32,000 bases of DNA from Candidatus Saccharimonadota bacterium (GCA_963698035.1 OY969114.1:480001-512000), one strand, 5' to 3'; shown: positions 8,700 to 32,000, numbered from the stretch's first letter. A program made the numbers and translations. Notes: generated from the sequence alone by a model not told the origin.

Positions 8700-9770
8700 A
8701 TGAACGACCTTGTTAACGACCTATTGGGACAACCGAACACAAGCACAGCAAGCAGCGCACAGGTGGCAGACTCTTCTGAAATCAAGATAGTGACAGTTGG
8801 ATTGGGTGGAGCTGGATGCAACATAGTGAACAGGCTTCTTAAGGCAGGGGTCAAGGGCACAGAGTTCATTGCGGTGAACACGGACGGCCAGCACTTCAAG
8901 ATAATAGATGACAGGATAAGAAAGATACTTATCGGAAAAGCGTTAACAAGGGGTCTCGGAGCGGGTGGTGATGTAAAGACAGGCGCAAAAGCGGCAGAGA
9001 TTGACAGGCCGCTTCTAGAAGCTGCGGTATCCGGCGCGCAGCTGGTCTTCCTTACCGCAGGCATGGGAGGCGGAACAGGAGGCGGAGCTATACCTATCAT
9101 GGCGCAGATCGCAAAGGAGCAGGGTGCGATCGTGGTCGCGATGGTTACCTACCCATTCGACCTTGAGCGGGTTAGGAAGGTAAAGGCAGAGGAGGGCATC
9201 CAGGAGCTCAGGAAGCACTGCGACAGCGTCATAATCCTGGACAACAACATGCTGGTCAAGCTGGTGCCGAACCTTCCGATGAACGAGGCGTTCGCGCTTG
9301 CGGACTCTGTCCTTGCAAAGGCGATAGGAGGCCTTGTCTGGACCATAACCCAGCCAAGCATGATCAACATAGACTTCGCCGACGTACGCGCAATAATGGT
9401 CGGAGGCGGCGTGGGATTCATAGCGGTCGGGACCGGAAAGGGAGCCGAGAAGGTCGAAGCAGCAGCGGAAGGGGTTCTTAAGAACAAGCTTCTTGACGTT
9501 AACTTCGAGAACGCAACAGGAGCCCTGATACACATCTCAGGCGGGTCATCGCTCACCATAGGCGACGCGATACACTCGGGCGAGATAATAACCGAGCAGA
9601 TGTCTCCAACAGCGAACGTAAAGTGGGGCGCAAGGATAATCCCAGGATACGAGGACACGCTAGAGATCGTAGCGATCGTAACCGGCGTCAAGGGTGCGAG
9701 TATCGTGGGAAGGCTGGAGGAGAGGAGCCAAGCGAGCGCCTCCTACGGCGACCTGGAGACAATCGGTTGA
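8700..9770 (+). CDS. ftsZ: Cell division GTPase FtsZ (paralog 1)
   Basis: 'GLGGAGCNIVNRL', tubulin signature 'GMGGGTGGGAIP', 'NIDFADVRAIM'. Confidence 0.95.
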   Translation: MNDLVNDLLGQPNTSTASSAQVADSSEIKIVTVGLGGAGCNIVNRLLKAGVKGTEFIAVNTDGQHFKIIDDRIRKILIGKALTRGLGAGGDVKTGAKAAEIDRPLLEAAVSGAQLVFLTAGMGGGTGGGAIPIMAQIAKEQGAIVVAMVTYPFDLERVRKVKAEEGIQELRKHCDSVIILDNNMLVKLVPNLPMNEAFALADSVLAKAIGGLVWTITQPSMINIDFADVRAIMVGGGVGFIAVGTGKGAEKVEAAAEGVLKNKLLDVNFENATGALIHISGGSSLTIGDAIHSGEIITEQMSPTANVKWGARIIPGYEDTLEIVAIVTGVKGASIVGRLEERSQASASYGDLETIG

Positions 9771-9795
9771 CCCTCGTTTACATTACGGTGGTTTA

Positions 9796-10805
9796 ATGTT
9801 GGCAGACCAAGGCGAAGAGGACTTCATAGCGAAGCTGGCGGTTGTCGGTGTTGGCGGTCAGGGAACTAACCTGGTGAACAGGTTGTACAACTCCGGGATA
9901 CGGAGCGCCGTAACGATATCCATTAATACCGATTCCAAGCACCTCAACATGGTCAAAGCCGATAAGAAGCTGCTGCTCGGCAAGAGCATAACCCACGGAT
10001 TGGGGGCAGGTGGCTTCCCAGAGGTCGCGATGAAGTGCGCCGAGGCTGACAGCAACGAGATCACAAAGCTCCTTGAGGGCTACGACATGATCTTCGTTAC
10101 AGCTGGCATGGGAGGCGGAACAGGAGGCGGAGCCGGACCGTCGATCGCAAGGATCGCAAAGGAGACCGGCGCGCTCGTTGTCGCCTTTGTCACATATCCA
10201 TTTGCGCTTGAGAGGAGCAGGAGGGTAAAGGCCGACTGGTCGATTGAACAGATGAGCAAGTACGCAGACACTACGATCGTGATAGAGAACGACAGGCTTC
10301 TCAGCTACGCACCAAACCTGCCGATGGACAAGGCGTTCGAGCTGATAGACAACGTCGCGTGCAACGCAGTGAAGGGCATAGCGGACACGATAATGCTGCC
10401 AAGCCTGATTAACTTGGACTTCGCTGATATAAGGGCGGTGATGGGTAATGCGGGCACCGCAGTGATAAACCTCGGGGTGGGATCGGGGGCCGACAAGGTA
10501 GAAGCTGCAGTAAGGTCGACGCTGAACCATCCAATGATGAACGTATCGCTTGAAGGATCCAAGAGCGCCATGGTCCATGTGACAGGGGGACCTCGCTCAC
10601 CATCCAGGAAGCCACCCAGATAGGGGAAGGGGTCACCGAAGGGCTTGACTCAAAGGCCAATGTAATATTCGGCGCAAGGCTCGTTCCCGAGCTGAAGGAT
10701 CAGATAAGGGTCATGTCGATCGTGACAGGGGTAACTCCGAAGTTAGGGATGGGAATAAAGCGCGAAGGAGTAGCCCAAATGGACCTGAACATAGGAATTC
10801 TCTAA
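9796..10805 (+). CDS. ftsZ: Cell division GTPase FtsZ (paralog 2), reading frame interrupted at a G5 run
   Basis: From the ATG at 9796: 'GVGGQGTNLVNRL', 'GMGGGTGGGAGP', 'NLDFADIRAVM'. The frame stops at 10623, but FtsZ homology ('TSLTIQEATQIGEGVTEGLDSKANVIFGARLVPELKDQIRVMSIVTGV') continues in the next frame from 10590 to the stop at 10803-10805. The switch is at GGGGG 10585-10589. Confidence 0.9.
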
Positions 10806-19269: not shown

Positions 19270-19674
19270 TTATTTGTTTGCTTCGGCGTAGCTTATCAGC
19301 CTCCCTACGACGTTGCCCTTGCTCAGGACATTGTTGTACTCGCTGTCAGTGCTGACTCTGTATCCCTCCGACCTCTCCATCTCCAGCTCCTCCTCCATCA
19401 CGTCGGACATCTCGTCCTGCTCCATGGTGAACAGCTCCGATGATATCTCGTCCGGAAGCTTCGCCTTCATGGCAAGATATGCTATGGATGCCTTCTCTGG
19501 AGGTTGCCTTCGCGTCTTCTTTATGAAGAGCGCCTTCAGCACCATCTCCGTCGCGCGGTTGTACAGGAGCGATGCAGTTATCAGCTCCTTTCCGTCCTTG
19601 TACTTCTTTGCCAGTTCGAAATCCTTCGCGGCCTCTTTAAGAAGGCCGTCTCTCGGAAGGTTTCCCCTGTTCAT
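19270..19674 (-). CDS. HEPN-like helical protein (non-catalytic; contains no histidine)
   Basis: 'AAKDFELAKKYKDGKELITASLLYNRATEMVLKALFIKK' follows the HEPN helix pattern. There is no Rx4-6H motif (no His in the protein). It occupies the position upstream of fibrillarin. Confidence 0.4.
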   Translation of the reverse strand: MNRGNLPRDGLLKEAAKDFELAKKYKDGKELITASLLYNRATEMVLKALFIKKTRRQPPEKASIAYLAMKAKLPDEISSELFTMEQDEMSDVMEEELEMERSEGYRVSTDSEYNNVLSKGNVVGRLISYAEANK

Positions 19675-19776
19675 CTTCCACCAAGTTCAAAACACAAAAC
19701 TGTATTTAAATACTTTCGATGCATTAGGTTTAATCACATACAAGCAAGTTACCTATTGTTCAAAATCGGGGATTAA

Positions 19777-21999
19777 ATGCCCGACCTTCCTACGACAAGA
19801 TTCCTTATCGGACTCTCCACGATAGCCACTGGCGGCGTCACCAGGGAAGAGCTGATAAAGTACTTTACCGACCTCGTCAAGGACTCCTTTGGGATAGAGC
19901 GCGCAAAGGTCGTCGACCTCGACAGCGAGCATAGCGGAGGTACCATAGGCGGCCAGCTGATAAGCACCAGGAAGCAGTACGTCGACAATAGCCTCAGTGA
20001 CTATTCCTCCTTTCCGGAGCTTATCGGCTACAGCAACGAGGGATTCAAGAGCTATGCGGCGGTGCCGATAATGGCGGACGGCAAGGTTGTCTCGATGCTC
20101 GAGCTCCTCTCGCCCGCCGAGAGCAAGTTCACGCAGGAGATGATCAGCGGAGTATCTATAGGCGCGATGCTACTGGGATTTGCCCTCGCTTACAAATCCG
20201 AATACGGAAAGAGCACCAGGCTCGCAGGGTACTTCGATGCAGCATTCAACAGCGACAGCCCGCAGATGCTTGTCTCGTCAAACGGGGTGGTTGCAAAGGC
20301 AAACAAGGCCGCCACCAAGCTTTTCGGCTTCATGCAGCAGAGAGCCGAAGTCAAGCAGCTCCTCGGCATGGATTATGATAGACTGCTCTCGATATCGAAG
20401 ACGGGCGTGGCCGCTGCACTCCCCGTAAAGGAGAACGGCACCGACAAGACCTATTCCCTAATGGTGAGCAGGGCGAGCGAAGGGCTCCTCTACCTCTCGA
20501 TGCAGGATGTCTCAGATGTCTCCTCACTGAGGAACGCGCTCGCCTCTGTGATGAACAGCGACGACGTTTTCATAGCGTTCACAGACGAGCACCTCAACAC
20601 CTTGGGCGTCACCGAAAACTTCCAGCGCATCCTCGGATACGACAAGGACATGATGTCTGGCAAGAGCATAAGCGACCTTGTTGTAGAAAAGCAGAGGGCG
20701 GACTTCAGGGAGCTGGTAAAGAAAGAGCAGAAGGGTTCATTGAAGAGCACGGACCTCGCCTCGATGAGCGGCTATCCGACAAGGATGCACTTCTCTGTCT
20801 CGAAAGCGCTGAATGGCTATGCGATAATGTTCGCCAAAGCAGATGCAGAGAAGTACCTGCAGGCCCTGAGGGAGAGCCTCGACGACTTCACCGCGAACGC
20901 GGCCGAGATAGTGATAAGGGTTGACAGCATGGGCTACATAGTCTCGTGCAATTCCTCAGCTGAGGCTATGCTCGATTACACCAGGCAGGAGCTTGCAGGC
21001 AAGGAAATAAAATTATTGTACAAGGACCCATCGACCGTAGACCACGATATGGCATACGCGAGGAACCTGGGCAAGCCCGACAATTCCTACATAGACCTAA
21101 TAAAGAGGGACGGCACGATGGTGCCTGGCACCCAGTCAATACGGCTGCTTACCGACTCGGAAGGCAACTCCGAGTACCTGATAGTGGTGAAGGAACTCGC
21201 CAGCAAGCGCAGGATGGACGACCAGGAGTTCGAGCTCGGCAAGAGCGAGAGAGAGATAAAGAAGCTAAGATCTACAGGAGACCTGAAGTCGCAGTTCATA
21301 TACAATATATCGCACGAGCTCAAGACACCGCTGACCAGCATAAAAGGCTTCGCCAAGCTCCTCTCGACCGGCGAATTCGGGAAGCTGAACGAGGAGCAGC
21401 TCCAGTACATTCAGACTATATGCGACGAATCCGACAGGCTCATGCTGATAATACAGCAGGTGCTGGATGCCTCGAAGCTGGATGCACAGAAGGTGAAGCT
21501 CGACTTTAAGGAAGTGGACCTGACACAGCTTGGGAACAACCCAAGCATAGCCTCACTCCGCGAGGCTGCCGTGGAGAAGGGGCTCGTCTTTTCATGGAAG
21601 GTCGACTACGACGTTCCAAAGGTGCTCGCAGACCCCAACAGGCTGATCCAGATATTCGTCAACTTGGTCGGCAACTCGATAAAGTTCACCGAGAAGGGGA
21701 GCATCCAGGTCCACATATTCAAGAGGCCCCGAAAGAAGATACAGTGCGACATAATTGATACCGGAATTGGCATAAGCGAGGATGATAAGCAGAAGCTCTT
21801 CAAGAAGTTCTACCAGGTGCAGAAGAAAGGCATAGTAAAGCAGGACGGCTCCGGCACGGGCCTAGGACTCTCAATAACAAAGGAATTGGTAAAGCTCCAT
21901 GGTGGGGACATATCCTTCGAGTCGCAACTCGGGAAGGGCAGCAGGTTCTGGTTCACGATAAGGGTAGACTCAAAGACGAAGAAGGGATCACACGACTAG
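19777..21999 (+). CDS. Cytoplasmic sensor histidine kinase (GAF + PAS repeats + HisKA + HATPase_c)
   Basis: No TM segments. H-box 'ISHELKTPLTSIKGFAKLL', N-box 'IFVNLVGNSIKFT', G1 'DTGIGIS', G2 'GTGLGLSITKELVKLHGG'. Confidence 0.9.
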   Translation: MPDLPTTRFLIGLSTIATGGVTREELIKYFTDLVKDSFGIERAKVVDLDSEHSGGTIGGQLISTRKQYVDNSLSDYSSFPELIGYSNEGFKSYAAVPIMADGKVVSMLELLSPAESKFTQEMISGVSIGAMLLGFALAYKSEYGKSTRLAGYFDAAFNSDSPQMLVSSNGVVAKANKAATKLFGFMQQRAEVKQLLGMDYDRLLSISKTGVAAALPVKENGTDKTYSLMVSRASEGLLYLSMQDVSDVSSLRNALASVMNSDDVFIAFTDEHLNTLGVTENFQRILGYDKDMMSGKSISDLVVEKQRADFRELVKKEQKGSLKSTDLASMSGYPTRMHFSVSKALNGYAIMFAKADAEKYLQALRESLDDFTANAAEIVIRVDSMGYIVSCNSSAEAMLDYTRQELAGKEIKLLYKDPSTVDHDMAYARNLGKPDNSYIDLIKRDGTMVPGTQSIRLLTDSEGNSEYLIVVKELASKRRMDDQEFELGKSEREIKKLRSTGDLKSQFIYNISHELKTPLTSIKGFAKLLSTGEFGKLNEEQLQYIQTICDESDRLMLIIQQVLDASKLDAQKVKLDFKEVDLTQLGNNPSIASLREAAVEKGLVFSWKVDYDVPKVLADPNRLIQIFVNLVGNSIKFTEKGSIQVHIFKRPRKKIQCDIIDTGIGISEDDKQKLFKKFYQVQKKGIVKQDGSGTGLGLSITKELVKLHGGDISFESQLGKGSRFWFTIRVDSKTKKGSHD

Positions 22000-22929
22000 T
22001 ATCCCGCATGCGTTCCCTACGATGGCAGCGTCACTGAGCCCTGTCATGAGGCTGTCATAGCTCTGTCCCTGCCAAGCGCCGCTGAATATGGTGTTGACTG
22101 GCAGGCCGCTTGTAAGATTCATGGTTATCGTGAGGGCAGGCCCGGTGCTTCTTGATGTCTGCGACACTGTTGAGTACACCACCGCCCAATCGCCATTGCC
22201 CACGTTCGTTATGTTGCGTGCTAGCAAATATGGCGTAACGGCCGTGATATTCTGATAGGTGAATGGTCCGTAGGGCGATTTCGTGTAGTGAAGTATATAG
22301 CTTGAGTTGTAGAGGTCGCCTGTGCAACTGGCGGTATTGGCGTAGTCTGTGGTGTAGTTCGCCATGAGTGGATAGTATAGGTTATTCTTTAGTAATCCAA
22401 TGATGCGCTGCTCGGCGCTCTGCGTCGAGTTTATCGTTGTGCTTGTAGATATCGTTGTGCTCTGCACGGATATGGTAACCGAGGTTGTAGAATACGCCGA
22501 TGCCGACACAACCACTATCCTTCCCGAGTCGGGCTGCTCATCGAGGTATGTCTGTAGTGGAGTGAGCGTGACCGAGACGCTATTGCTCGTTACCGCATCG
22601 AGGTACACCTCCATGTTCGCATAGGTTGTGCCTGCGTTTACCTTTGTGAAATTGTCAAGAAGCAGCGTAACGTTAAGCGTCTGGCTAACGAAAATAGGTG
22701 ATTTCCCGATAAGTATGTAAGCCGTGTCGGAGCTGGGATTAGTCTTGCTCAGAAGCAGCACGTACTGGCCGCCCTGCAGCTTTACAACCGTCGGTGTGCT
22801 CGTGAGGGTCAGCTTTGTGGGCCCGGATATGCCCACCGCACCGCTGAGTATAGCCAGCGACGCTACTACCGCAACCACGATTATTATTACCGCAATGACG
22901 GCTACGCCGGTGTACTTCTTACGGGCCAT
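21988..22929 (-). CDS. Membrane-anchored extracellular protein, sequon- and Thr/Ser-rich
   Basis: N-terminal TM 'GVAVIAVIIIVVAVVASLAILSG', a T/S-rich stretch 'SVQSTTISTSTTINSTQS', and multiple N-x-S/T. Its 3' end overlaps the kinase 3' end by 12 nt (convergent). Confidence 0.6.
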   Translation of the reverse strand: MARKKYTGVAVIAVIIIVVAVVASLAILSGAVGISGPTKLTLTSTPTVVKLQGGQYVLLLSKTNPSSDTAYILIGKSPIFVSQTLNVTLLLDNFTKVNAGTTYANMEVYLDAVTSNSVSVTLTPLQTYLDEQPDSGRIVVVSASAYSTTSVTISVQSTTISTSTTINSTQSAEQRIIGLLKNNLYYPLMANYTTDYANTASCTGDLYNSSYILHYTKSPYGPFTYQNITAVTPYLLARNITNVGNGDWAVVYSTVSQTSRSTGPALTITMNLTSGLPVNTIFSGAWQGQSYDSLMTGLSDAAIVGNACGILVV

Positions 22930-23058
22930 CGCATCGACCTATATCCTCGTTGAAGGTTTATTAAAGTTTGCACTTTGAAAAAAGGGTGCCTCTCGTCTTC
23001 CAAAGAAAAATAGAAAGCATAATATTCCTTCTGGTTGACTTATCATTTAGGTGACCAG

Positions 23059-24264
23059 ATGGCAGGGAATGTCCCCCTTAACGAAGAGGTACTTTCTATA
23101 GTGAATGAGAGGCAGCAGCTGAGCTACAATGAACTTACAGAGATGATGTTCAGTCGTGGCGTGTCGGAACCGGACCTCAAGCAGTCCCTTTCAGACCTTG
23201 AATCGGGCAAGCTGATAGCATCAAGGAAGAACGGCGGTGTGCTTACCTACTACATCCTCAAACAGGACGAGATTCTCAGGAGGATCCTGATAGTCGAGGA
23301 TGACAAGAACATAAACAAGCTGATGGCACTGTCGATCGGGAAGGGATTCGAAATAGGGCAGATATACGATGGAGGGGAGGCCCTGCAAGCGGTGAAAATA
23401 GCAAGGCCCGACCTAATAATACTGGATCTCATGCTCCCGCACAAGGACGGCCTTGAGATCTGCCAGACGATAAAATCGGACCCAGCTACGAGCGGCACGA
23501 TAGTGATACTCGTAAGTGCGATGGATCCAACGAGCAACCGCTTCAAGGGGCTCAAGTATGGCGCAGATTACTACATAAAGAAGCCGTTCGACCCGAGCGA
23601 GCTAAGGACCCTTGTAACGATATTCCTCAGGAAGAAGGGCAAGAGGTTCGATCCACTCATAGACCTGCCTGACGAGGAGAGAATATCGAAGGAGGTTGAG
23701 AGATCGATAAAGGAGAGCGAGGTCATAGGAACACTAAAGGTGGATGAACTTGGCGCCTACGCAAGGAGGTTCGGCGAGCATGCGGCAATGATAATACTCA
23801 GGCTGATGTCACAGCTCCTCCAGGACTCAATAAAGATGAAGGGCGGCGGCGTCTTCGTCGGATTCCTGAACAGCGACGAGTTCGTGGTTGCCGGGACCAA
23901 GGATGAGGTTGGAGCGGTAGTGAGGGAGATAACCGATGAGTTCGCGGCCGTGCTGCCTTTCATACTGCAGGATGCGGGCTACAAGCTTCTAGAGCTCAAC
24001 ATAGATAGCCTCTTCGAGTCAAAGGAGGTGCCCAAGCTCTCCATTGTCTACTCAGAATCGGACAAGGCGGAGATAAAGGAGAGGAGGAGCGAGATACTGA
24101 AGAGCAAGGGTGTCGCAGGGGACGTAGGCTCCTACACCTACGAGGAACTGCAGAGGCTCTTCGGGAGGGATGACCTCGACATAAAGATAACAAGGGACTC
24201 AAACGGGGTAAGGCTGCACATAGGAAAGAACCCCGAAGGAAAGGACACAAAGAGAGAACAATGA
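23059..24264 (+). CDS. Response regulator: wHTH-like N-terminus + REC + degenerate GGDEF-like domain
   Basis: REC: 'RILIVEDDKN...DLIILDLMLPHKDG...YYIKKPFD'. C-terminal domain: 'DPLIDLPDEE' (compare GGDEF-domain 'DPLTGLPNRR'), 'LKVDELGAYARRFGEHAA', and 'GFLNSDEFVVAG' in place of GGDEF. The ATG at 23059 is preferred over the TTG at 23035. Confidence 0.8.
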   Translation: MAGNVPLNEEVLSIVNERQQLSYNELTEMMFSRGVSEPDLKQSLSDLESGKLIASRKNGGVLTYYILKQDEILRRILIVEDDKNINKLMALSIGKGFEIGQIYDGGEALQAVKIARPDLIILDLMLPHKDGLEICQTIKSDPATSGTIVILVSAMDPTSNRFKGLKYGADYYIKKPFDPSELRTLVTIFLRKKGKRFDPLIDLPDEERISKEVERSIKESEVIGTLKVDELGAYARRFGEHAAMIILRLMSQLLQDSIKMKGGGVFVGFLNSDEFVVAGTKDEVGAVVREITDEFAAVLPFILQDAGYKLLELNIDSLFESKEVPKLSIVYSESDKAEIKERRSEILKSKGVAGDVGSYTYEELQRLFGRDDLDIKITRDSNGVRLHIGKNPEGKDTKREQ

Positions 24265-24268
24265 TGCT

Positions 24269-24817
24269 ATGGCGGCATTTGGTCGACCCAGAGCTCAGAC
24301 TGCAATCGACTTCATAACATCGTATGGAGTAGCGGTACTTGTTTTATCGGTTACGATCTACATAATCTTACAGCTCGGCGTCTTCAACCCGCAGATAGCG
24401 CCCAGCTACTGCAACACGGCGCCGTCATTCTCGTGCGCCGCCTACGTGATGTACCCGAACGGCACATTCACATTCCTGCTGGGGCAGACAATAGGAGGTT
24501 CCATAATCATAAGCGGCATAGGCTGCTCCAGTGAGATAAATGGGACGGGGGTTGGCCCGGAGTTCGGCAACGTCGGGCTTGTCGGCACATCCATGTACTA
24601 CCCGACAAATGGGTTCACAAAAGGAACGGTACTGCTGAGCAACTTGCCGCAGCAGTTCAGCGTCAACTGTTACAATAGCGGCAGTGGACTGCCTGCCACG
24701 GCGTCGCTCGGAAGCAGCTTCGCGGGCTTCCTCTGGTTGAATTACACCTATTCGGGGTTGCCGAGCACTTACCAGACAGTACAGCAGGTCCTCACGTTCA
24801 GCACCTCCTACACGTAG
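24269..24817 (+). CDS. Archaeal type IV pilin-like protein (class III signal peptide)
   Basis: N-terminus 'MAAFGRPRAQTAIDFITSYGVAVLVLSVTIYII' matches the class III prepilin signal ([KR][GA]Q[ST]AI[DE][FY]L... then a hydrophobic helix). Sequon-rich ectodomain. Starts 4 nt after the response regulator. Confidence 0.7.
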   Translation: MAAFGRPRAQTAIDFITSYGVAVLVLSVTIYIILQLGVFNPQIAPSYCNTAPSFSCAAYVMYPNGTFTFLLGQTIGGSIIISGIGCSSEINGTGVGPEFGNVGLVGTSMYYPTNGFTKGTVLLSNLPQQFSVNCYNSGSGLPATASLGSSFAGFLWLNYTYSGLPSTYQTVQQVLTFSTSYT

Positions 24818-24883
24818 CTCGGAAGAAATCATATTAAATAGATGATGTTGTATATTTCTGAAAGTGGTTCAGTGAAGTTCAAT

Positions 24884-25711
24884 ATGGTTGTGGCCTCCAT
24901 GTTCGCTGCGACAATGCTCCTGCTCATATCCGGGCAGCTGAGCAATGCGGCCTATGTTACGGTCATACAGCCCTTCAATTACACGGTCACGAGCAGCAGC
25001 CCAGTCTACCTGGGTAAGGACGGGCCGGGGCAGACTTTCTATGTGACCATATCAGCTACAACTACGAACAACAGCGGTGCGGTCAACCTGCTAGGATGGA
25101 ACAAGCTCGTGGTGACCAACCTTCCGCAAGGATGGATCGCCCAGAACTCTTCGTTGTACACCCCCACACTATCCGTAAAGATAACACCCTCGGCCACGGC
25201 GCAGAACGGTACATATGCCTTCAACCTTACCGCGGTAAACGTTGGCAACTACTCGAAGCTCGGCGCGCTGAGGTTTACCGCACTCATCAACATCACTCCA
25301 GACGTATTCAAACTGAGTGTCAGTCCAGCATCAATATCTGAAAGCACAGGCACACCAGCAGATGTCTACGTTACGATAAACAACACGGGGGTCTCTGACA
25401 GCCTCTTCCTGATAACGATAACTGGCATACCCGCCCAGAACATCACAGATACGGTAATAGCGCTGCACGGCACATCGCAGCGTTACGCCTATCCCATAAC
25501 CCTCAGCCAGCCGGGCAGGTACACGCTGAACATAAACGTCGAATCGATATCGAGCTCCCTGGTGCGAAGTCAGGCGAATGTGACGGTGGTGGCTAGGGCG
25601 ACGCTGCTCAGTGACTACACAGCAATAGGCAGTGGCATCGACGCCTTCCCTGTAGTCTATGAGCCCATCTATGCAGTGATGTACCTGATAAGCAGGCTCT
25701 TCCCCGCCTAA
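24884..25711 (+). CDS. Secreted sequon-rich protein with beta-sandwich-like repeats and a hydrophobic C-terminus
   Basis: Signal peptide 'MVVASMFAATMLLLISGQLSNA' (the ORF track opens earlier at 24842). The pattern 'FKLSVSPASISESTGTPADVYVTINNTGVSD' resembles CARDB/NEW3-type domains. Hydrophobic tail 'IYAVMYLISRLFPA'. Confidence 0.55.
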   Translation: MVVASMFAATMLLLISGQLSNAAYVTVIQPFNYTVTSSSPVYLGKDGPGQTFYVTISATTTNNSGAVNLLGWNKLVVTNLPQGWIAQNSSLYTPTLSVKITPSATAQNGTYAFNLTAVNVGNYSKLGALRFTALINITPDVFKLSVSPASISESTGTPADVYVTINNTGVSDSLFLITITGIPAQNITDTVIALHGTSQRYAYPITLSQPGRYTLNINVESISSSLVRSQANVTVVARATLLSDYTAIGSGIDAFPVVYEPIYAVMYLISRLFPA

Positions 25712-25758: not shown

Positions 25759-25830
25759 GCCCGAATAGCTCAGTGGTAGAGCGACTGGCTGTTAACCAGT
25801 AGGTCGCAGGTTCAATCCCTGCTTCGGGCG
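25759..25830 (+). tRNA. tRNA-Asn (anticodon GUU)
   Basis: Hand-folded cloverleaf. Acceptor GCCCGAA/TTCGGGC (7 bp), D stem GCTC/GAGC, anticodon stem ACTGG/CCAGT with loop CTGTTAA, T stem GCAGG/CCTGC with loop TTCAATC, discriminator G. No encoded CCA. Confidence 0.92.
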
Positions 25831-25891
25831 TTATGGTAAGGTTCAACCCCCTTTCATAAGTATTATAAACACATACATCTAATATCCCTCT

Positions 25892-27193
25892 ATGGCCACT
25901 TTAGAGGATTGGAAGGTCAGCGCTGACAAGCTCAACAAAAGGGTCATGGAAGACCCTCGCATAAGCGCAGTCAACAAGAAGCGCATAGCAGAACACGTTG
26001 TAAACCTGAACGGAGAGCGCAAGAACCCACGAAGCATCATAAGACATCTTTACGGGTTGCTCAAACTTATGGAATGCGTATCTTACAAAAGGGACATCAA
26101 TACCTTTACGGACAGGGACATAAAGAAAGCCATCCACGTAGTAGAGGAACAAACTTATCCTAAAAAGATTATGGAGAACGGGAAGCTCACAACAAAACAA
26201 GTCCCTTACAGCGAAGAGGTAAAGCTCCACTTTTACGCTGTGTGGGTCAAGTACTACAAGCTGGCGCTCGGTAAAGGCTACATGAAACCCGACAACGTGG
26301 CCTTCATAAAGATTACAGGTAAGGCTAACCAGAAACGAGACCCCGACTCGATACTCGAGCGTGAGGACATAATGAAGATGCTGGGTAAGTGCTACAATAT
26401 TAGGGACTCGGCCTTCCTATATTGTCTCTGGGAATCTGCGACCAGAATAAATGAGATACTATCATGCACAAAGAAGGACTTGCAGATTGTAAGCGCAAAG
26501 AAAGGGGAGTACGAAGCGATCCTGCACATCCACGTATCTAAAACAAAACAGCGTAAAGTCCCGTTGTTCGAATCCGTCCCTTACCTGCTTTCATATTTAG
26601 AGTCAAAGTATCTTCAGGATGCTCCCGACGAAGCTCCGCTCTGGCAACGAGTTCATGCTGGGCACGGCGCTGATAAAGGACTACAAGAACCCGAAGCCAG
26701 AAAACTATTAGCAGAGATAGGCATGCGAGCTGGGATAACGTCGAAGCGCCTTAATCCCCACAGCTTTAGATTCTCCCGAATAACTTATGAAAGCGAAATA
26801 GGTGTCCCGCAAGCATGGATAAAGGAGAAGACAGGCTTAACGCAGTCGAGCAATAGGATAGATGTCTATGCGAGGTTAAAGGGTACTGCGGTACAAGAAG
26901 GTTATCGCAAGCTGATACACGGGGAGACGACGCCGAAGGAAATAGTAATGCCTGTCGCTCCGTTGCAGAGATGTCCGAAGTGCGACAACGATATAAGGCT
27001 CAACGCTCTATTCTGCGACAAGTGTGGAGCTGTGCTGTCGCAGGACAAGAAGGATGTTGTCGATGAAGTAGACAAGAACCTTATCGATAAGGCGCTGGAC
27101 GAATACCTGAAAGACCCTGCGAACTTTAAGAGAGCGCTCGAGCGAGTATCCCATCAGGCTTTAGTAGAGGACAGAGAGCGAAAGAGGAAATGA
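25892..27193 (+). CDS. int: Tyrosine recombinase/integrase with a C-terminal zinc ribbon
   Basis: Catalytic-domain motifs 'ESATRINEIL' (Arg I), 'VSKTKQRKVPL' (Lys), 'NPHSFRFSRIT' (HxxR), 'NRIDVYARL' (Tyr). C-terminal 'CPKCDNDIRLNALFCDKCG'. Confidence 0.85.
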   Translation: MATLEDWKVSADKLNKRVMEDPRISAVNKKRIAEHVVNLNGERKNPRSIIRHLYGLLKLMECVSYKRDINTFTDRDIKKAIHVVEEQTYPKKIMENGKLTTKQVPYSEEVKLHFYAVWVKYYKLALGKGYMKPDNVAFIKITGKANQKRDPDSILEREDIMKMLGKCYNIRDSAFLYCLWESATRINEILSCTKKDLQIVSAKKGEYEAILHIHVSKTKQRKVPLFESVPYLLSYLESKYLQDAPDEAPLWQRVHAGHGADKGLQEPEARKLLAEIGMRAGITSKRLNPHSFRFSRITYESEIGVPQAWIKEKTGLTQSSNRIDVYARLKGTAVQEGYRKLIHGETTPKEIVMPVAPLQRCPKCDNDIRLNALFCDKCGAVLSQDKKDVVDEVDKNLIDKALDEYLKDPANFKRALERVSHQALVEDRERKRK

Positions 27194-27197
27194 TACC

Positions 27198-27344
27198 ATG
27201 AAAAAGAAAACTGGGTACGTATGCGAGTGTGGGTTTAGATTCTCTGGCGCTGGGGAGATAAGAAACCACGATGTCTTTATCGCAAAGGATGGGAAAGGGG
27301 GAAGCATCTGTCCTAAATGTAAAAGACGATATGTTTGGTTGTGA
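27198..27344 (+). CDS. Small zinc-ribbon protein (48 aa)
   Basis: Hand-translated: MKKKTGYVCECGFRFSGAGEIRNHDVFIAKDGKGGSICPKCKRRYVWL. CxC...CxxC. Starts 4 nt after the int stop. Below the ORF-track length cutoff. Confidence 0.45.
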   Translation: MKKKTGYVCECGFRFSGAGEIRNHDVFIAKDGKGGSICPKCKRRYVWL

Positions 27345-27347
27345 AGG

Positions 27348-28349
27348 TTATACCAATCCCCATGCACGTACAAGGCCTATTGTCGATAGGTAAATAGATT
27401 CGTGTGTGGTTGTAAAGTTTAAGAGATAAAAATCAAGAACCCTAACCGAATACTTTTGTACCATGATACGAGACGCTATCGCTTCAGGGGACTCAACAAG
27501 AGGAATAGAACGAGGAAGCATACGAGTATTGAGTGGTTGCGCTTCAGGGATTACTTTAGGGTACTTGGATACTTCAACATTATACTCGTCGATAATCTCT
27601 TTCCTTCGTGCAAGCCAGTACTTATAAAAGAACCTGTCAAGCTCCCACGAAGACGTTGCAGTAGTACGCAGGTTCTTTGAACTTGTCCCTATATATTTCA
27701 GCTTATCGGATGCAAGGTACATAAGGTCGGACTTTATTTTGCTGTTTGATGGAATCTTGGTATTGAACTGCTTATTTAACTCTGCGACCAGCTTTACCCT
27801 TATTTCCTCTGGGGTCTTTTCCTCTGTAATGCGAACCCGACCTTTTTCTTTTGTCGGTATCTCTTTAGGGTTAAACATACGAAACCCTATCGGCTCTCCT
27901 TTGAGGATAGAGACGATTTGTGTTTGGTACTGAAGAGCGTCGAAGGACATCAACGCTATAATCGAGTGTAAGATACCTGCTTTGATCTCTTTCTTTGTAA
28001 TATACTCCCCGACATAAGAGGTTATCAGAGACATTAATTCTTGATGGTACTTCTTTTCTGAGTGCTTTGTTATTTCTCTTAGCTTTTCTGCAAAATGCAC
28101 GTCAAAAATCTCTTTCTGTATCTGCTCGAGGTACTTTGCGATGTAAGAATATTGTAGCTGGCGCTCTATGGTCTTCGTCGTCATAGGTTGCTTGTTCAAC
28201 AAGAGAATGACCATTACCTCGTATGGTGTTGTTAACGATATAGGAATTGTATCGAGGTCGTTCGACATACCCAGCATCGATTCTTTCTGTAAATTACCGA
28301 CGACAGAGCGGTAAGTGTCCTCGACACGTTCGGCCACAAATATACCCAT
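27348..28349 (-). CDS. Orphan 333-aa protein, possible N-terminal wHTH
   Basis: The only long ORF in an AT-rich stretch. 'TPYEVMVILLLNKQPMTTKTIERQL' resembles a winged-helix recognition segment; the rest is unrecognised. A TATA-like TTTAAATA (minus strand, ~28368-28378) lies upstream of the start. Confidence 0.6.
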   Translation of the reverse strand: MGIFVAERVEDTYRSVVGNLQKESMLGMSNDLDTIPISLTTPYEVMVILLLNKQPMTTKTIERQLQYSYIAKYLEQIQKEIFDVHFAEKLREITKHSEKKYHQELMSLITSYVGEYITKKEIKAGILHSIIALMSFDALQYQTQIVSILKGEPIGFRMFNPKEIPTKEKGRVRITEEKTPEEIRVKLVAELNKQFNTKIPSNSKIKSDLMYLASDKLKYIGTSSKNLRTTATSSWELDRFFYKYWLARRKEIIDEYNVEVSKYPKVIPEAQPLNTRMLPRSIPLVESPEAIASRIMVQKYSVRVLDFYLLNFTTTHESIYLSTIGLVRAWGLV

Positions 28350-28544
28350 GTAGCAATCAACAATAGAATATTTAAACGTTCCTAATAGGCTTTTAATAGG
28401 TAGTCCTGTATAAAGCTAATATACATTATATGGCTAACTGCTATACGGCTTTTACATCCTTACCCTCGAAGTAGGGTATAGCTTTTTATATCTTTATATC
28501 TTTATATATAAGATTGAGTATAGGTTTTTGTATAAACCTAATAG
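28350..28544. promoter_or_regulatory. Divergent control region of the element (promoters/operators, possible origin)
   Basis: AT-rich 195 nt between divergent genes. Contains CCTAATAGG (28381) / TTAATAGG (28393) / CCTAATAGA (28537), GGCTTTTA at 28388 and 28447, the palindrome TACCCT-N6-AGGGTA (28461-28478), and tandem TATATCTT units (28487-28510). Confidence 0.6.
28487..28510. repeat. 8-nt tandem repeat TATATCTT TATATCTT TATATATA (three phased TATA-like boxes)
   Basis: Read directly from the sequence. Ends 35 nt upstream of the RHH gene ATG. Confidence 0.8.
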
Positions 28545-28775
28545 ATGATGGAAATGGAAAACGAAGACCCGAACGCAACCGACGGCCTGAAGACAACCCA
28601 CGTAAAGAAAATCAACCTTACGTCGATATATCTGAACCCATCCCCCGAGCTGAAGTCGTGGATAGCGGAGCAGAAGGCTCGACATGGTGCAACGTTCTCG
28701 GCGCTGGTAAGGGTTGCGCTGGTTGAGAAGATGCACCGGGAGACGACGCCGATAGTGGCGCAGGCGACAGCATGA
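28545..28775 (+). CDS. Ribbon-helix-helix (CopG/Arc/MetJ-type) DNA-binding protein
   Basis: After an acidic N-terminus: beta-strand 'KKINLTSIYLNP', helix 'ELKSWIAEQKARHG', helix 'FSALVRVALVEKM'. Confidence 0.6.
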   Translation: MMEMENEDPNATDGLKTTHVKKINLTSIYLNPSPELKSWIAEQKARHGATFSALVRVALVEKMHRETTPIVAQATA

Positions 28776-28963
28776 CGTACGAAGATTATATTATAAGAGC
28801 GGTTGTAGACGCACTCCCTCGCCTGAGGGACAATAGCAGGCTTACGCCAGCGCACAGGCGTTTCGTGGCGATGGTCGAGGGGTATGTTAATGCAAGGAAG
28901 CAGGACGGGATGATAGCCACGCAGGCTGGAAGGCCTGCTGTCGCTAAAGAGGTTATTGCATGA
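28772..28963 (+). CDS. Orphan small protein (63 aa)
   Basis: ATGA overlap with the upstream RHH gene. No recognisable motif. Confidence 0.45.
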   Translation: MTYEDYIIRAVVDALPRLRDNSRLTPAHRRFVAMVEGYVNARKQDGMIATQAGRPAVAKEVIA

Positions 28964-29124
28964 GATACAGACGCAGACACCAACCACCATCACAGGAGAT
29001 AATCGTGCGGAAGACGTTGCAGACCACAACACAGCGTCCTCAGGTACTCCAGCCTGGAAGCGCCGGTGCGGTGTTTATCGGTAAGGTAAGGCAAAAGATC
29101 CAGGAAGAACAAAAGGCGAGATGA
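28960..29124 (+). CDS. Orphan small basic protein (54 aa)
   Basis: Hand-translated: MRYRRRHQPPSQEIIVRKTLQTTTQRPQVLQPGSAGAVFIGKVRQKIQEEQKAR. ATGA overlap upstream, and its stop is 1 nt before the next ATG. Below the ORF-track cutoff. Confidence 0.35.
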   Translation: MRYRRRHQPPSQEIIVRKTLQTTTQRPQVLQPGSAGAVFIGKVRQKIQEEQKAR

Positions 29125-29125
29125 A

Positions 29126-29578
29126 ATGGAAGCGTGCTATCGATGCGGTTATGTTAATTCTCCTTTGCTGAGTTCAGGCCAGCCGTTTAATTGTATCCGA
29201 TGCGGAGCGCCACTCGGAAGACAGGGATGGCTATCAAAGAACGAACGACCACAGCCGAGACCTCAGAGGGAGGATACCAAAGACGCAGAAAGAGATGACA
29301 AAATGGATGGGATAACGCTTATGCAAGTTCAGGAACAGGGTAAGACGCTGTGGCCGACTGACCTTCAGGTAAAGACTCTGCTATCGCTCGGGGTCTCAAG
29401 AGAAGACATCGAAGGCCTATCTCGTACTGAAGCTGGGGAGCTTATTCGCAAGAAGCTCGAGGAGAAGGGAGCGAGGTATACAGAAATGCTATGGTGTCCC
29501 TTTTGCTCTGAACTGCATCCTGTTCAGCATAGTAAATCGGTACGGGATTTCAAGGAATGGAAAGCGAAACAAAAATAA
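29126..29578 (+). CDS. Orphan zinc-ribbon protein (150 aa)
   Basis: N-terminal 'CYRCGYV...CIRCGAP' zinc ribbon, a charged linker, and a C-terminal 'CPFCSELHPVQH' Cys/His cluster. Confidence 0.5.
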   Translation: MEACYRCGYVNSPLLSSGQPFNCIRCGAPLGRQGWLSKNERPQPRPQREDTKDAERDDKMDGITLMQVQEQGKTLWPTDLQVKTLLSLGVSREDIEGLSRTEAGELIRKKLEEKGARYTEMLWCPFCSELHPVQHSKSVRDFKEWKAKQK

Positions 29579-29590
29579 TCGGCGATAATT

Positions 29591-29773
29591 ATGGATTTGA
29601 ACTTGAAAGGGAAACAGGTTTTAGTAATAATGAAGGACGGCTTCATTAAACATGGTCTACTTCTCGATGCACAGCCGAACTTCGTTGTCCTGCAATTTCA
29701 GGATGGTAAAGAGGAGATAATCAGCTTCAGCACGATTTCTGTAATAAAGGAAAATGGGGGGCGGACACGATGA
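29591..29773 (+). CDS. Sm/Hfq-like fold small protein (60 aa)
   Basis: 'LKGKQVLVIMKDGFIKHGLLLDAQPNFVVLQFQDGKEEIISFSTISVIKE' follows the Sm1/Sm2 strand pattern (compare Hfq '[25 protein letters not shown]...VYKHAISTVVP'). Confidence 0.45.
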   Translation: MDLNLKGKQVLVIMKDGFIKHGLLLDAQPNFVVLQFQDGKEEIISFSTISVIKENGGRTR

Positions 29774-30843
29774 CCATAGACGACGTTATGAAGCAAATAA
29801 GCGAGAGGGGGTACGGGTTCGTAAACCTTTCATACGACCCCAAGATAAATTCCGAATTTCTGGGACTCAAGTATTACCGCCTGCTCCCTGAAAAATTTAA
29901 TGATTATGAGCATCAGCTCCAGCGCCATCGTTTTGATAAGCTGGTAAGCAATAATGGATACGCTCTCGACTCAACCCTCTACTGCATTATGAAGGTCGAC
30001 AACGATTCGCTGAATCGCCTCTGTGCTACTCCTGAGTTCGAGGACTTTACATACACGCTGGGTTTCTTTGACATCCCAGAAGCAGAGTTAAATGACATCG
30101 AGGGACGGAAACAAAATCTTCAGGAAGTCAGAGGTATGTTTAGCAAGCATCACACAATCGAGGAGATAAAATCCGAGATTATCAAATGTTATACCGACCC
30201 TAATAACAAGGGAAGCCACAATCAAGCAATATGGACAAGCCTGCCTCTCGATAGCGTAGAAAAGCGCTCGATAGGGGACACTACAACCTACAAGATAAAG
30301 ATTGCAGGACGGGAGATGGCGCTTACCAGCATGAAGCTCCTCGATTCAAAGAGTTTCAGGGCAAAGTTTCAAGACTTGTTCGGTGTCCAGCTCCCGTTTT
30401 GCAGAACTGAATTATGGTCGATGTTTACCCTTTACATAAATTCGTTAATATGTACCGAAGTAGTCAGAGACACAACAAGCGAGCGGGATATGATCAGAGA
30501 GAATGTAAAGAACCACATCGAAGGGAGTATCGCTGTCCCGACCTATGACGAAGCTATGAATTCATGGAACAGCATAAGGATAGGCGAAGGCGACAACCTC
30601 TACATCTTTCCTAAGCATCTTTTAGAGGGCATTAAAAATCAGGTGGGACGGGAGATAAACGTGAACAACGTTGTCGATGCTATTGCAGATTGGTACATCA
30701 CGTCAACTCCACGCAAGTTAAAGGATAATAAAAAGCAGGTGAGGTTCTGGCGATTAAGGAAGAGCGCCTTTGACCTTTCAGGCATCGCACAGGAAGAGGA
30801 TGACCGACAAGGCGCTTTAATCGAGAGTGGCGAGCATGAATAA
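29770..30843 (+). CDS. Orphan 357-aa protein; tentative primase-polymerase (AEP)-like motifs
   Basis: ATGA overlap upstream and an 8-nt overlap with the helicase gene. Weak AEP-like motifs 'LYCIMKVDND' (hhhDxD), 'NKGSHNQAIW' (sxH), 'LDSVEKRSIGDTTTYKIK'. Not a secure assignment. Confidence 0.5.
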   Translation: MTIDDVMKQISERGYGFVNLSYDPKINSEFLGLKYYRLLPEKFNDYEHQLQRHRFDKLVSNNGYALDSTLYCIMKVDNDSLNRLCATPEFEDFTYTLGFFDIPEAELNDIEGRKQNLQEVRGMFSKHHTIEEIKSEIIKCYTDPNNKGSHNQAIWTSLPLDSVEKRSIGDTTTYKIKIAGREMALTSMKLLDSKSFRAKFQDLFGVQLPFCRTELWSMFTLYINSLICTEVVRDTTSERDMIRENVKNHIEGSIAVPTYDEAMNSWNSIRIGEGDNLYIFPKHLLEGIKNQVGREINVNNVVDAIADWYITSTPRKLKDNKKQVRFWRLRKSAFDLSGIAQEEDDRQGALIESGEHE

Positions 30844-32000
30844 GACAATAATCTATGGTATTGCTGGGTCGGGTAAGACTGCAAAGATAATAGAGCTTAT
30901 CCGTACACGACATCCTGACAGGCTAGGCGAGTGCTGTGTAATCAGCTTCTCAAGGTCGGCTGTACGCAACCTTAGGGAGCGAATAGGGGTAAACAACGCC
31001 AAGGAAGAGTACGACCGCAAGGATTTAGAGGGGTTTAGGACGATTCATAGTATTTGCTCAAGGTTAATGGAGTTGAGCAAAGAAATATTTTTGACAGAGG
31101 GAGACATCGAGAAGTTTATGGAGCAAAAACACATAGATTTCAAACAAGAGGACGAGCTGTACGACGAGCAGAGCGATGGCCAGCGCCTTCTTTCATTAAT
31201 CGACTACATAAGACACACGCAAGTAAAAAGCATAGATAACTTGAGCGCCAGAGACCTGCATCTTCAGATAGGGTACTATCTGGCGCAGTATGGCCACTTC
31301 GACAAAATCATAGCGGACGTTCAGATAATTCGAGACTTGATACAAGCATACGAGGACTATAAGAAAGAAATCGGTAAGCTCGACTATACTGACATCCTGT
31401 TATTGTACCTAAGCAATCCCGTACAAACAGGGTATAAAGTTCTTGTAGTAGACGAGTTTCAAGACATGAGTCCGCTTATCTACAAGATCATAAAAACATT
31501 CGAGCAGGGAGCGGACTACGTTTACTACGCTGGCGACCCGAATCAAGCAATCTATACATGGATGGGAGCTGACCCCCACTTCCTAATAGACGAGATAAAG
31601 GATGCTGACGAAGAGATACTGCTCAATAAGTCGCATAGAGTAGCGGATAAGGTCTATGTTGTCGCAAAGGATACCATAAACAGCAACTCGAGGGACAAGA
31701 TAGATTTTGAAATAGAGTGTGTAAACAAAGGGGATGTAAAAAGGATTTCTGAAGACGATGTGGTCAGCATAGCGAAGACGACAGGCGCTTCAGGGACGAC
31801 CTACATACTGGCTCGTACCAACTGGATGAAGAGACGCATACTAAAGGCGCTTATGCAAGAGGGGGTCGAATTTTCAGAGATAAGCGGAAATAAGGTATGG
31901 ACAATTAAGTTAATCAACATAACCAACGCTCTCTTATCGATAAAGAACGGGACAGCGCTCAAAATCGACTGGCTGAAGGCCTTTATCGATGTAGTACCAT
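30836..32000 (+). CDS. UvrD/Rep/PcrA-like superfamily 1 helicase (partial; runs off the window)
   Basis: Hand-translated open frame from the ATG at 30836 with no stop to 32000. It is absent from the ORF track. Walker A 'YGIAGSGKT', motif II 'VLVVDEFQD', motif III 'AGDPNQAIYTW', motif IV-like 'NKSHR'. Confidence 0.85.
   Translation, partial: MNKTIIYGIAGSGKTAKIIELIRTRHPDRLGECCVISFSRSAVRNLRERIGVNNAKEEYDRKDLEGFRTIHSICSRLMELSKEIFLTEGDIEKFMEQKHIDFKQEDELYDEQSDGQRLLSLIDYIRHTQVKSIDNLSARDLHLQIGYYLAQYGHFDKIIADVQIIRDLIQAYEDYKKEIGKLDYTDILLLYLSNPVQTGYKVLVVDEFQDMSPLIYKIIKTFEQGADYVYYAGDPNQAIYTWMGADPHFLIDEIKDADEEILLNKSHRVADKVYVVAKDTINSNSRDKIDFEIECVNKGDVKRISEDDVVSIAKTTGASGTTYILARTNWMKRRILKALMQEGVEFSEISGNKVWTIKLINITNALLSIKNGTALKIDWLKAFIDVVP

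Follow-up and report, generated by a model that had tools for sequence, protein, structure and literature searches.

The locus described here raises the question of what a response regulator (RR) ending in a degenerate GGDEF domain, as found in bacterial diguanylate cyclases, does in an archaeon, where its gene lies immediately upstream of a gene for a pilin-like protein. The RR gene was found in a 32-kb stretch of DNA (OY969114.1:480001-512000; the entire stretch is hereafter called the window) at nucleotides (nt) 23059-24264 of the plus strand and specifies 401 amino acids (aa) from its ATG. An in-frame TTG at 23035 is an improbable start codon, to which homologue alignments give no support. 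The window is part of an archaeal chromosome and contains the genes for MCM, methionyl-tRNA synthetase, aspartate carbamoyltransferase, two FtsZ proteins, a presenilin-type signal peptide peptidase, glutamyl-tRNA synthetase (GluRS), and fibrillarin. The protein is the response regulator of the single two-component system (TCS) of Micrarchaeota, and it is very probably a non-enzymatic regulator consisting of a winged helix-turn-helix (wHTH) at the N-terminus, a REC receiver, and a catalytically dead GGDEF domain (Table 1).

An intact receiver and a GGDEF-fold output domain

The only Pfam match of the window RR is to the receiver (PF00072, aa 76-186, E 7e-24), and the best REC matches in NCBIfam are RpaB, PhoB, and MtrA. 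In an alignment of 45 orthologues, the acidic residues E80-D81-D82, the phospho-acceptor D123 (encoded at nt 23425-23427), S153, and K175 are invariant. REC is also the most conserved of the three domains, with a mean pairwise identity of 79%, compared with 64% for the GGDEF core and 54% for the wHTH. Judged from these residues, the receiver is intact and retains the set needed for phosphorylation. The partner kinase, a HisKA/HATPase_c protein, is encoded two genes upstream of the RR; a same-strand upstream orthologue was identified in 49 of 67 loci, and nine more loci contain one elsewhere. These and all other synteny counts refer to the best 80 loci of the family, the denominators being the loci with enough flanking sequence.

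For the C-terminal domain, neither the whole window RR nor its isolated C-terminal 208 aa gave a GGDEF match in Pfam even at E<=10, and a single-sequence scan of NCBIfam did not find GGDEF either. Because the single sequence gave no match, a claim of GGDEF homology needed evidence at the level of the family. PF00990 was matched by 27 of the 45 orthologues at E<=1 (best E 2.1e-5), and the score of one orthologue (P0094) was 24.8 bits, compared with a gathering cutoff of 23.8, with the alignment extending over profile positions 12-108 of 161. When 1.84e9 representative sequences were searched by hmmsearch with a profile of the domain, about 23 family representatives were followed by a tail of ~90 proteins at E 6e-11 to 1e-3. 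All nine tail proteins tested (E 6e-11 to 9e-6) are Pfam-verified GGDEF proteins (46-69 bits), and several are REC-GGDEF proteins of ~310 aa. The nearest relatives outside the family (P0143-P0148), which bridge it to other GGDEF proteins, form a distinct group of ~310-aa proteins characterized by a REC-like N-terminus that is degenerate or intact, a 'GH[IVL]GGDDF' motif, and a conserved 'IDRR' at the C-terminus; some of them weakly match the Cas10/Cmr2 palm2 model.

An AlphaFold2 model of the full protein, built on the orthologue alignment, comprises three domains (predicted local distance difference test [pLDDT] 85.8; predicted template modelling score [pTM] 0.85). Its C-terminal domain folds as β-α-α-β-β-α-β followed by extra helices and a β-hairpin, and contains an insertion of ~30 aa (helix aa 336-350). 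In a Foldseek search with this model, WspR (3bre, 2.8e-13), WpsR, PleD, and DgcR ranked over all REC-only structures, with 3i5a, 9g85, 2v0n, and 6zxb following 3bre. With a model of the domain alone (pLDDT 84.8), the top 20 PDB hits were all GGDEF domains at a probability of 1.00, including DosC (4zvg, 8.6e-5), TM1788, VC GGEEF, PA0575, Dcsbis, and DgcB (target template modelling scores of 0.54-0.57); class III adenylyl cyclases and Thg1 appeared from rank 21 on. The top match of the C-terminal profile among PDB sequences was the GGDEF protein 6eib, at a weak E of 0.23, and an hhalign comparison with DgcZ alone was correct in register but non-significant in score. HMMER (6eib), hhalign (DgcZ), and MAFFT (DgcZ, DosC, and the bridging GGDEF proteins) all gave the same motif correspondences: DPLIDLPDEE aligns with DxLTGLPNRR, LKVDELGAYARRFGEHAAMIIL with DIDxFKxxNDxxGHxxGDxxL, and GFLNSDEF with RYGG[DE]EF. 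By four independent lines of evidence, the C-terminal domain is a true GGDEF homologue at the family level. A preliminary description made from the sequence alone had proposed these motif correspondences, with a wHTH-like N-terminus, a canonical REC domain, and a region that follows the GGDEF fold segment by segment. This architecture is borne out by the Pfam REC match, the predicted topology, the alignments, and the family-level PF00990 match, and the comparison with PleD and WspR that it had suggested places both among the best structural neighbours.

A database search returned 2,600 protein matches to the RR; the top 120 have lengths of ~400 aa and identities of 62-94%, and they carry the labels Micrarchaeota, Micrarchaeia, or 'Marsarchaeota'. 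When one genome per GTDB species was scanned with the domain alignment, the family was detected in 233 genomes, essentially all from Micrarchaeota, at identities of about 55-94%. The best 80 loci, which include one on the closed chromosome of Ca. Micrarchaeum sp. A_DKE, are likewise essentially all from this phylum; three contigs filed as Methanothrix sp., Candidatus Acidoferrum sp., and Acidiferrales bacterium (L026, L011, and L085, respectively) are probably mis-binned. These data indicate that the kinase/RR pair is genuinely archaeal rather than a contaminant and is conserved over at least 233 species. Micrarchaeota, whose genomes are ~1 Mb in size, live as obligate partners of Thermoplasmatales, and since exactly one kinase/RR pair has been kept in them, whatever this pair controls is probably central to their lifestyle.

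The family was catalogued by Galperin, Makarova, Wolf, and Koonin (2018; PMC5847659), who described the ARMAN-1/2 protein as "WspR-like REC + inactivated GGDEF" and as the only RR there. Their Table S3 lists the histidine kinase (HK) BK997_01990 and the REC-GGDEF protein BK997_02000 (OJI07771) for ARMAN-1, and HK UNLARM2_0237 and REC-GGDEF UNLARM2_0239 for ARMAN-2; one RR per Micrarchaeota genome was reported, and contamination was left open. The window RR shares with the proteins of ARMAN-1 and ARMAN-2 (Ca. Micrarchaeum acidiphilum) the phylum, the description, the status of sole RR, and, by locus-tag spacing, the order HK - one gene - RR. On the basis of taxonomy, architecture, and layout, it is almost certainly their orthologue. 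Unlike the present account, the census entries describe no N-terminal wHTH, although the RR of a complete Micrarchaeota genome was counted as HTH-containing, and no residue-level loss of sites, pilin-like neighbour, or promoter palindrome. In the literature beyond the 2018 census, no functional study of a Micrarchaeota or Marsarchaeota RR or of an archaeal degenerate GGDEF protein was found, and these genes are unmentioned in a Micrarchaeota S-layer preprint and in a census of archaeal type IV pili. The family was thus already catalogued in 2018 and is, as far as the literature found, functionally uncharacterized. The novelty that the preliminary description had attached to the rarity of GGDEF domains in archaea is reduced by this census and by the 233 genomes. 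New here are the demonstration that the family is archaeal and clade-wide, the residue-level evidence that both nucleotide sites are lost, the identification of an atypical wHTH, the conserved association with a pilin-like gene, and the promoter palindrome.

Loss of the catalytic and c-di-GMP-binding sites

In the alignment with DgcZ, DosC, and the bridging GGDDF proteins, the first metal-binding Asp of the DxD motif corresponds to K227 in the window RR and to Lys or Arg across the family. In both the window RR and the family, the canonical FK is replaced by LG and the guanine-binding Asn by Ala, and the Asp of 'GD' is Met in the window RR and Ile, Met, or Leu in the family. In PleD, the metal- and guanine-binding positions are D327, N335, and D344. 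The GG[DE]EF signature has become NSDEF (aa 271-275, nt 23869-23883), and this sequence is itself not conserved, orthologues having NTEDF, ESEVF, TSSVF, NNTEF, NSDVF, DGEIF, and others. The loop of the inhibitory cyclic di-GMP (c-di-GMP) site (I-site; RxxD in DosC/PleD) reads KMKGGGV in the window RR and a variable K-x-K-x-x-x-x in the family, and no RxxD was found anywhere in the RR protein. The bridging bacterial-type relatives retain D-x-D-x-FK, YND, GD, and GGDDF. Because the catalytic, guanine-binding, and RxxD positions are replaced and the pseudo-signature varies, the RR is expected neither to act as a cyclase nor to bind c-di-GMP in the canonical way. The residue mapping and the motif check over the whole protein therefore agree with the preliminary description, which had noted altered cyclase motifs and no RxxD.

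The invariant residues of the GGDEF core are located not in the former active site but in helices α0 (FDPLxDLP), α2 (RLxSQLLQD), and α3 (EFxxVxxFxxQD) and in the C-terminal hairpin. The domain is under purifying selection without catalysis, and the pattern is that of a structural or interaction module rather than that of a ligand pocket where the active site used to be. The earlier suggestion of a repurposed nucleotide-binding or scaffold domain is accordingly divided: a scaffold is plausible, whereas the nucleotide-binding part finds no support, the contacts of the active site and the I-site all being replaced at positions that are not conserved.

The bacterial diguanylate cyclases WspR, PleD, and DgcR, which are the best full-length structural neighbours, share with the RR the REC-then-GGDEF order, the phospho-acceptor set, and probably activation by dimerization. 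The RR differs from them in the absence of GG[DE]EF, of the metal- and guanine-binding residues, and of RxxD, and is predicted to be a non-enzyme; it also has an extra N-terminal wHTH, the insertion of ~30 aa in the GGDEF domain, and an archaeal host. A second group of relatives in function comprises the I-site c-di-GMP binders PopA, PelD, SgmT, and YdaK and the REC-PAS-dGGDEF-dEAL (d, degenerate) protein FimX, which resemble the RR in that an inactive GGDEF domain serves in signalling without being an enzyme. REC domains are also present in FimX and PopA, and type IV pili are under the control of FimX. These proteins still bind c-di-GMP through an RxxD I-site or EAL, whereas the RR has no I-site and no EAL or PilZ partner, and its organism, unlike the hosts of these receptors, has no known source of c-di-GMP. 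An I-site receptor of the PopA/PelD type was rejected for the RR, in which RxxD is missing and the I-site loop varies. The output domain is a fossil diguanylate cyclase that is probably tied by co-transcription to genes for the cell surface. The RR would be a clear case of an enzyme domain that was co-opted as a scaffold once its gene had passed between the domains of life, and the finding gives no evidence for c-di-GMP signalling in archaea.

Pilin-like gene, promoter element, and proposed mode of action

The stop codon of the RR gene (TGA, 24262-24264) is followed by four nt (tgct) and then by the ATG of an open reading frame (ORF) of 182 aa. This confirms the layout given in the preliminary description, i.e. 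an RR gene 4 nt upstream of a pilin-like gene with a class III signal, then a sequon-rich secreted protein, with a GAF-PAS kinase nearby. A pilin-like gene is directly downstream of the RR gene in 73 of 78 loci, with gaps mostly between -50 and +35 nt across 76 loci; such short gaps are consistent with an operon. The N-terminus of the 182-aa protein, MAAFGRPRA/QTAIDFITSYGVAVLVLSVTIYIIL (the slash precedes position +1), has basic residues, then Gln, an acidic, and an aromatic residue at +1, +5, and +6, respectively, and a hydrophobic helix of ~20 aa, and the motif basic-x-Q(+1)-x-x-x-D/E(+5)-F/Y with a hydrophobic helix is present in 72 of 76 pilin-like orthologues. No curated pilin or class III model of Pfam or NCBIfam matched this protein, the only match being a weak one to DUF7287 (E 0.12), and no PDB relative was detected. 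Its homologues are named 'hypothetical protein' in all sources. No pilus ATPase, platform protein, or prepilin peptidase is encoded in the window or in the syntenic loci examined; Micrarchaeota genomes hold two type IV pilus (T4P) systems and one FlaK-like peptidase elsewhere than at this locus (Golyshina et al. 2017). 'Pilin-like' is a fair description of the signal and helix, and the protein is at most a candidate pilin. The parallel drawn earlier with bacterial c-di-GMP control of type IV pili reduces to an analogy, the window containing no pilus-assembly genes. In one locus (L031), the slot downstream of the RR gene is occupied instead by a gene for another surface protein of the prepilin type, which is 283 aa long, contains a LamG/pentraxin domain, and has the textbook class III signal KSQSAMEYLMTYGWAILII.

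The promoter region of the RR gene contains a 17-bp quasi-palindrome, AAAGCATAATATTCCTT, which is unique within the window. Its consensus is AAAG-N9-CTTT around a TATA-like core, with half-sites ~13 bp apart. When 967 kb of related loci were scanned with a position weight matrix, which was trained on the same loci as were tested, the element was detected at 41 RR promoters; at least 12 further hits were this site read on the reverse strand, and only 3 were located elsewhere. Since the element is confined to the RR promoter, it is not a generic promoter of these genomes. It is the transcription factor B recognition element (BRE)/TATA of the RR operon and a candidate autoregulatory operator, with a half-site spacing that would suit a wHTH dimer. 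A second element, (A)AGGTTTATTAAAGTTTGC (window 22950-22970), recurs across many related loci at a distance of 28-37 nt upstream of the ATG of the divergent 313-aa gene, of which it is probably the BRE/TATA.

In the AlphaFold2 model, the N-terminal domain has the wHTH topology α1-β1-α2-α3-β2-β3 (aa 7-67). Its profile matches, among solved structures, MecI/BlaI over its whole length (E 0.002, aligned aa 5-71), followed by CodY and SmtB, and a divergent member of the family (P0140) matches Pfam TrmB at E 1e-4. The wing has the invariant sequence IASRxxGGxxTYY, and helix α3 is variable and acidic; the mean net charges are -3.9 for the domain, -1.6 for α3, and +2.2 for the wing. BlaI/MecI-type repressors are thus the best solved-structure sequence match, including the YY motif of the wing strand. 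The match is marginal, however, and the DNA contacts of the MecI recognition helix are replaced in the RR by acidic or variable residues; the C-terminal dimerization or cleavage domain of the BlaI/MecI type is also absent. Other regulators for comparison are LtrR of Methanococcoides burtonii and FilR1 of Methanosaeta harundinacea, transcription regulators in which, as in the RR, an N-terminal (w)HTH precedes REC, an unusual order in comparison with the REC-first regulators of bacteria, and which are paired with a cytoplasmic or PAS-type kinase. Unlike the RR, LtrR and FilR1 have no GGDEF-like domain and come from haloarchaea and Methanosarcinales, and they differ from it in that its wHTH is acidic with a non-conserved recognition helix. 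DNA binding by the wHTH is plausible but not assured.

The best explanation of the locus as a whole, and one that we consider on balance probable, is that the RR, driven by phosphorylation, regulates its own operon by non-enzymatic means. D123 of the OmpR-type receiver would be phosphorylated by the cytoplasmic GAF-PAS kinase that is encoded two genes upstream. The GGDEF domain would descend from a bacterial WspR-like REC-GGDEF regulator and, having lost the active site and the inhibitory c-di-GMP site, would have been kept as a structural, dimerizing, or interaction module. Phosphorylation would lead to dimerization of REC, perhaps aided by the dead GGDEF fold, whose ancestral function required dimerization, and this would reposition, i.e. 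release or align, the N-terminal pair of winged helices. In the preferred version, held only tentatively and as possible rather than probable, the winged-helix pair would bind, within the promoter of the RR gene itself, the 17-bp quasi-palindrome that overlaps the BRE/TATA. The outcome would be control of the RR and pilin-like operon, probably also of the neighbouring surface glycoprotein genes, and thereby of a surface structure. The locus offers a testable entry point into surface regulation by a DPANN archaeon, with orthologues in the cultivable A_DKE and Mia14.

Several points weigh against this explanation. The presumed recognition helix has no conserved DNA-contacting residues, the wing being the only basic invariant part of the domain, and an acidic wHTH with a variable α3 would suit a protein-interaction winged helix about as well. 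The pTM of the three-domain model suggests that the wHTH is packed against the other domains. The palindrome could be just a well-conserved orthologous BRE/TATA; its right arm is less conserved than its left, and neither the divergent 313-aa gene nor the 289-aa gene has a second copy upstream in the window or in the 967-kb scan. The two most divergent members with known context (P0129 and P0135) lack the pilin adjacency: the downstream gene is unrelated in both, encoding a Dpo4-type polymerase in one case and being convergent in the other. In the core clade, synteny covers the entire neighbourhood, fibrillarin and GluRS among it, so that the pilin adjacency alone is weaker evidence than it appears. 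Finally, the output of archaeal TCSs has been argued to be mostly protein-protein interaction (Galperin et al. 2018; PMC5847659).

The main rival, which we regard as doubtful, is in line with several of these points: the RR would be a protein-protein adaptor whose dead GGDEF domain and acidic winged helix, upon phosphorylation, bind a protein target rather than DNA. Degenerate GGDEF domains of bacteria, such as those of PopA, FimX, and CsrD, often act as scaffolds. The target could be a type IV pilus component, the prepilin peptidase, a factor in secretion or glycosylation, or one of the general transcription factors, and assembly of the pilin-like/glycoprotein surface structure would be controlled after translation. 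The character of α3 favours such an adaptor, as does the location of the invariant polar patches elsewhere (N16/Q19/Q20, S32/R33, and the SQLLQD and QD of GGDEF helices α2 and α3). The T4P systems and peptidase encoded elsewhere in Micrarchaeota genomes could supply targets, and the conclusion of the 2018 census that most archaeal RRs act through protein-protein interaction points in the same direction. On the other hand, the conserved neighbourhood encodes no candidate partner save the kinase and secreted proteins, the latter across the membrane; the solved structures most closely related to the wHTH belong to repressors that bind DNA; and the clade-specific palindrome is situated exactly at the promoter.

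A more far-reaching and unlikely proposal is that the sole TCS turned a bacterial diguanylate cyclase into a phosphorylation switch that activates, via the acidic wHTH and the dead GGDEF scaffold, a pilin-like/glycoprotein structure for contact with the Thermoplasmatales host. If true, it would represent an archaeal, c-di-GMP-free re-invention of the bacterial logic by which GGDEF proteins control pili. In a rarer variant, the remodelled GGDEF domain would bind an archaeal or host-derived nucleotide signal.

It is more unlikely still that the RR is a ligand sensor whose remodelled GGDEF domain binds a nucleotide or small molecule (GTP/ATP, c-di-AMP, a cyclic oligoadenylate, or a host-derived metabolite) at a non-canonical site and integrates this signal with phosphorylation. 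This reading corresponds to the repurposed nucleotide-binding domain of the preliminary description. Bacterial precedents exist in the GTP-sensing degenerate GGDEF of PdeA/CC3396, the ATP-binding GGDEF of GdpP/YybT, and the I-site receptors PelD and PopA. Besides the fold itself, the family retains the N-terminal DPLxDLP element and the Gly in the 'FG' turn, and one orthologue weakly matches a GdpP-type GGDEF model (E 0.015). However, the known base-, phosphate-, and metal-contact positions are all replaced, and the pseudo-signature and the I-site loop vary, whereas a ligand pocket should be conserved. These genomes have one HK, one RR, and no reported c-di-GMP enzymes. More than 300 archaeal GGDEF proteins are detectable by BLAST, many of them in DPANN and Asgard archaea; c-di-GMP was undetected in the two model archaea tested (Braun et al. 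2021; PMC8646023).

That the likeness to GGDEF is merely that of a generic palm fold (class III adenylyl cyclase, Cas10, or Thg1), or that the gene is bacterial contamination in archaeal bins, is very improbable. Adenylyl cyclases and Thg1 among the weaker Foldseek hits, the weak Cas10 palm2 matches of the bridging proteins, and template modelling scores to GGDEF domains of only about 0.45-0.57 would fit a generic fold, whereas the exclusively GGDEF top ranks, the specific profile links to PF00990 proteins (E down to 6e-11), and the orthologue exceeding the Pfam threshold argue against it. Contamination is countered by the archaeal neighbours (fibrillarin, GluRS, MCM, and FtsZ) in the window and the 80 loci, the closed A_DKE chromosome included. 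For practical purposes, both possibilities are refuted by the structural ranking, the profile links, and the gene context. An unorthodox nucleotidyl cyclase (diguanylate cyclase or Hypr-like) acting through D273-E274 of NSDEF is scarcely credible and was rejected: the window RR keeps the D-E-F of the signature and the second Asp of DxD (D229), but the signature varies among orthologues otherwise 60-80% identical, D229 is replaced by Glu, Asn, Gly, or Arg, and the first metal-binding Asp, both signature Gly residues, and the guanine-binding Asn and Asp are all absent.

Gene layout around the response regulator

Table 1. Features of the RR locus, in window coordinates.
Feature	Coordinates	Strand	Description	Basis
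Sensor histidine kinase	19777..21999	+	740 aa, predicted cytoplasmic; GAF-PAS-PAS-HisKA-HATPase_c; no transmembrane segment	Pfam
313-aa protein	21988..22929	-	Between kinase and RR, divergent from RR; N-terminal membrane anchor, 25% Ser+Thr, 8 sequons	ORF
17-bp quasi-palindrome	23014..23030	+	AAAGCATAATATTCCTT; about 42 nt upstream of RR ATG	Upstream alignment, position statistics
Shine-Dalgarno-like GGTGA	23050..23054	+	5 nt before RR ATG (23059)	
RR domain 1	23059..23274	+	Acidic wHTH, aa 1-72	AlphaFold2 topology, profile matches
RR domain 2	23278..23634	+	REC receiver, OmpR/PhoB type, aa 74-192	PF00072
RR domain 3	23638..24228	+	Catalytically dead GGDEF-fold domain, aa 194-390	Sequence homology, structure, residue mapping
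Pilin-like protein	24269..24817	+	182 aa; class III (prepilin-type) signal RPRA/QTAIDF, hydrophobic helix, 4 conserved Cys, 3 sequons	
289-aa secreted protein	24842..25711	+	N-terminal signal, 10 N-x-S/T sequons, C-terminal hydrophobic tail	ORF, sequence

The ribosome-binding site in front of the RR gene is kept as GGTGAC or GGCGAT at the same place in related loci. The kinase matches HATPase_c (E 2.6e-28), HisKA (1.5e-21), PAS_9 (4e-19), and GAF (about 3e-5), and its sequence contains no hydrophobic 19-mer. The 313-aa protein, which has a transmembrane-like segment at aa 4-37 and is a predicted surface glycoprotein, gave no match in Pfam, NCBIfam, or PDB; a homologue is adjacent to and divergent from the RR gene in 54 of 74 loci. 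Its gene and that of the kinase converge, with their 3' ends overlapping by 12 nt (21988-21999). The 289-aa protein, the true start of which may be the Met at 24881, has no match in Pfam or PDB, and a homologue is located within 3.5 kb downstream in 45 of 56 loci (53% mean identity). Many related loci contain an AAA_18/AAA_33 kinase-like gene of about 160-180 aa between the pilin-like and 289-aa genes (e.g. 7758-8303 in L001 and 7800-8348 in L002); the window has no such gene there, with only 24 nt separating the pilin-like and 289-aa genes.

Between fibrillarin and the kinase, a TTG-initiated ORF of 170 aa without a Pfam match (19313-19825) overlaps the kinase start by ~50 nt; related loci have an opposite-strand gene of 136 aa at this position. 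Two tandem, same-strand ORFs of the FtsZ/tubulin family (8700-9770 and 9694-10623) overlap by ~77 nt as listed, and the second, with only a partial FtsZ_C match, probably starts further downstream. Beyond the 289-aa gene, a tRNA-Asn(GTT) gene (25759-25830) is followed by a gene for a tyrosine integrase with a C-terminal zinc ribbon (25892-27193) and then by a block of ORFs without Pfam matches, and the GC content falls from ~0.52 to ~0.45. From this composition, the region 25759-32000 looks like a mobile element or provirus integrated at the tRNA gene; the syntenic loci contain instead a gene of 225-248 aa plus ribosomal-protein or PadR genes at the position of the tRNA and integrase.

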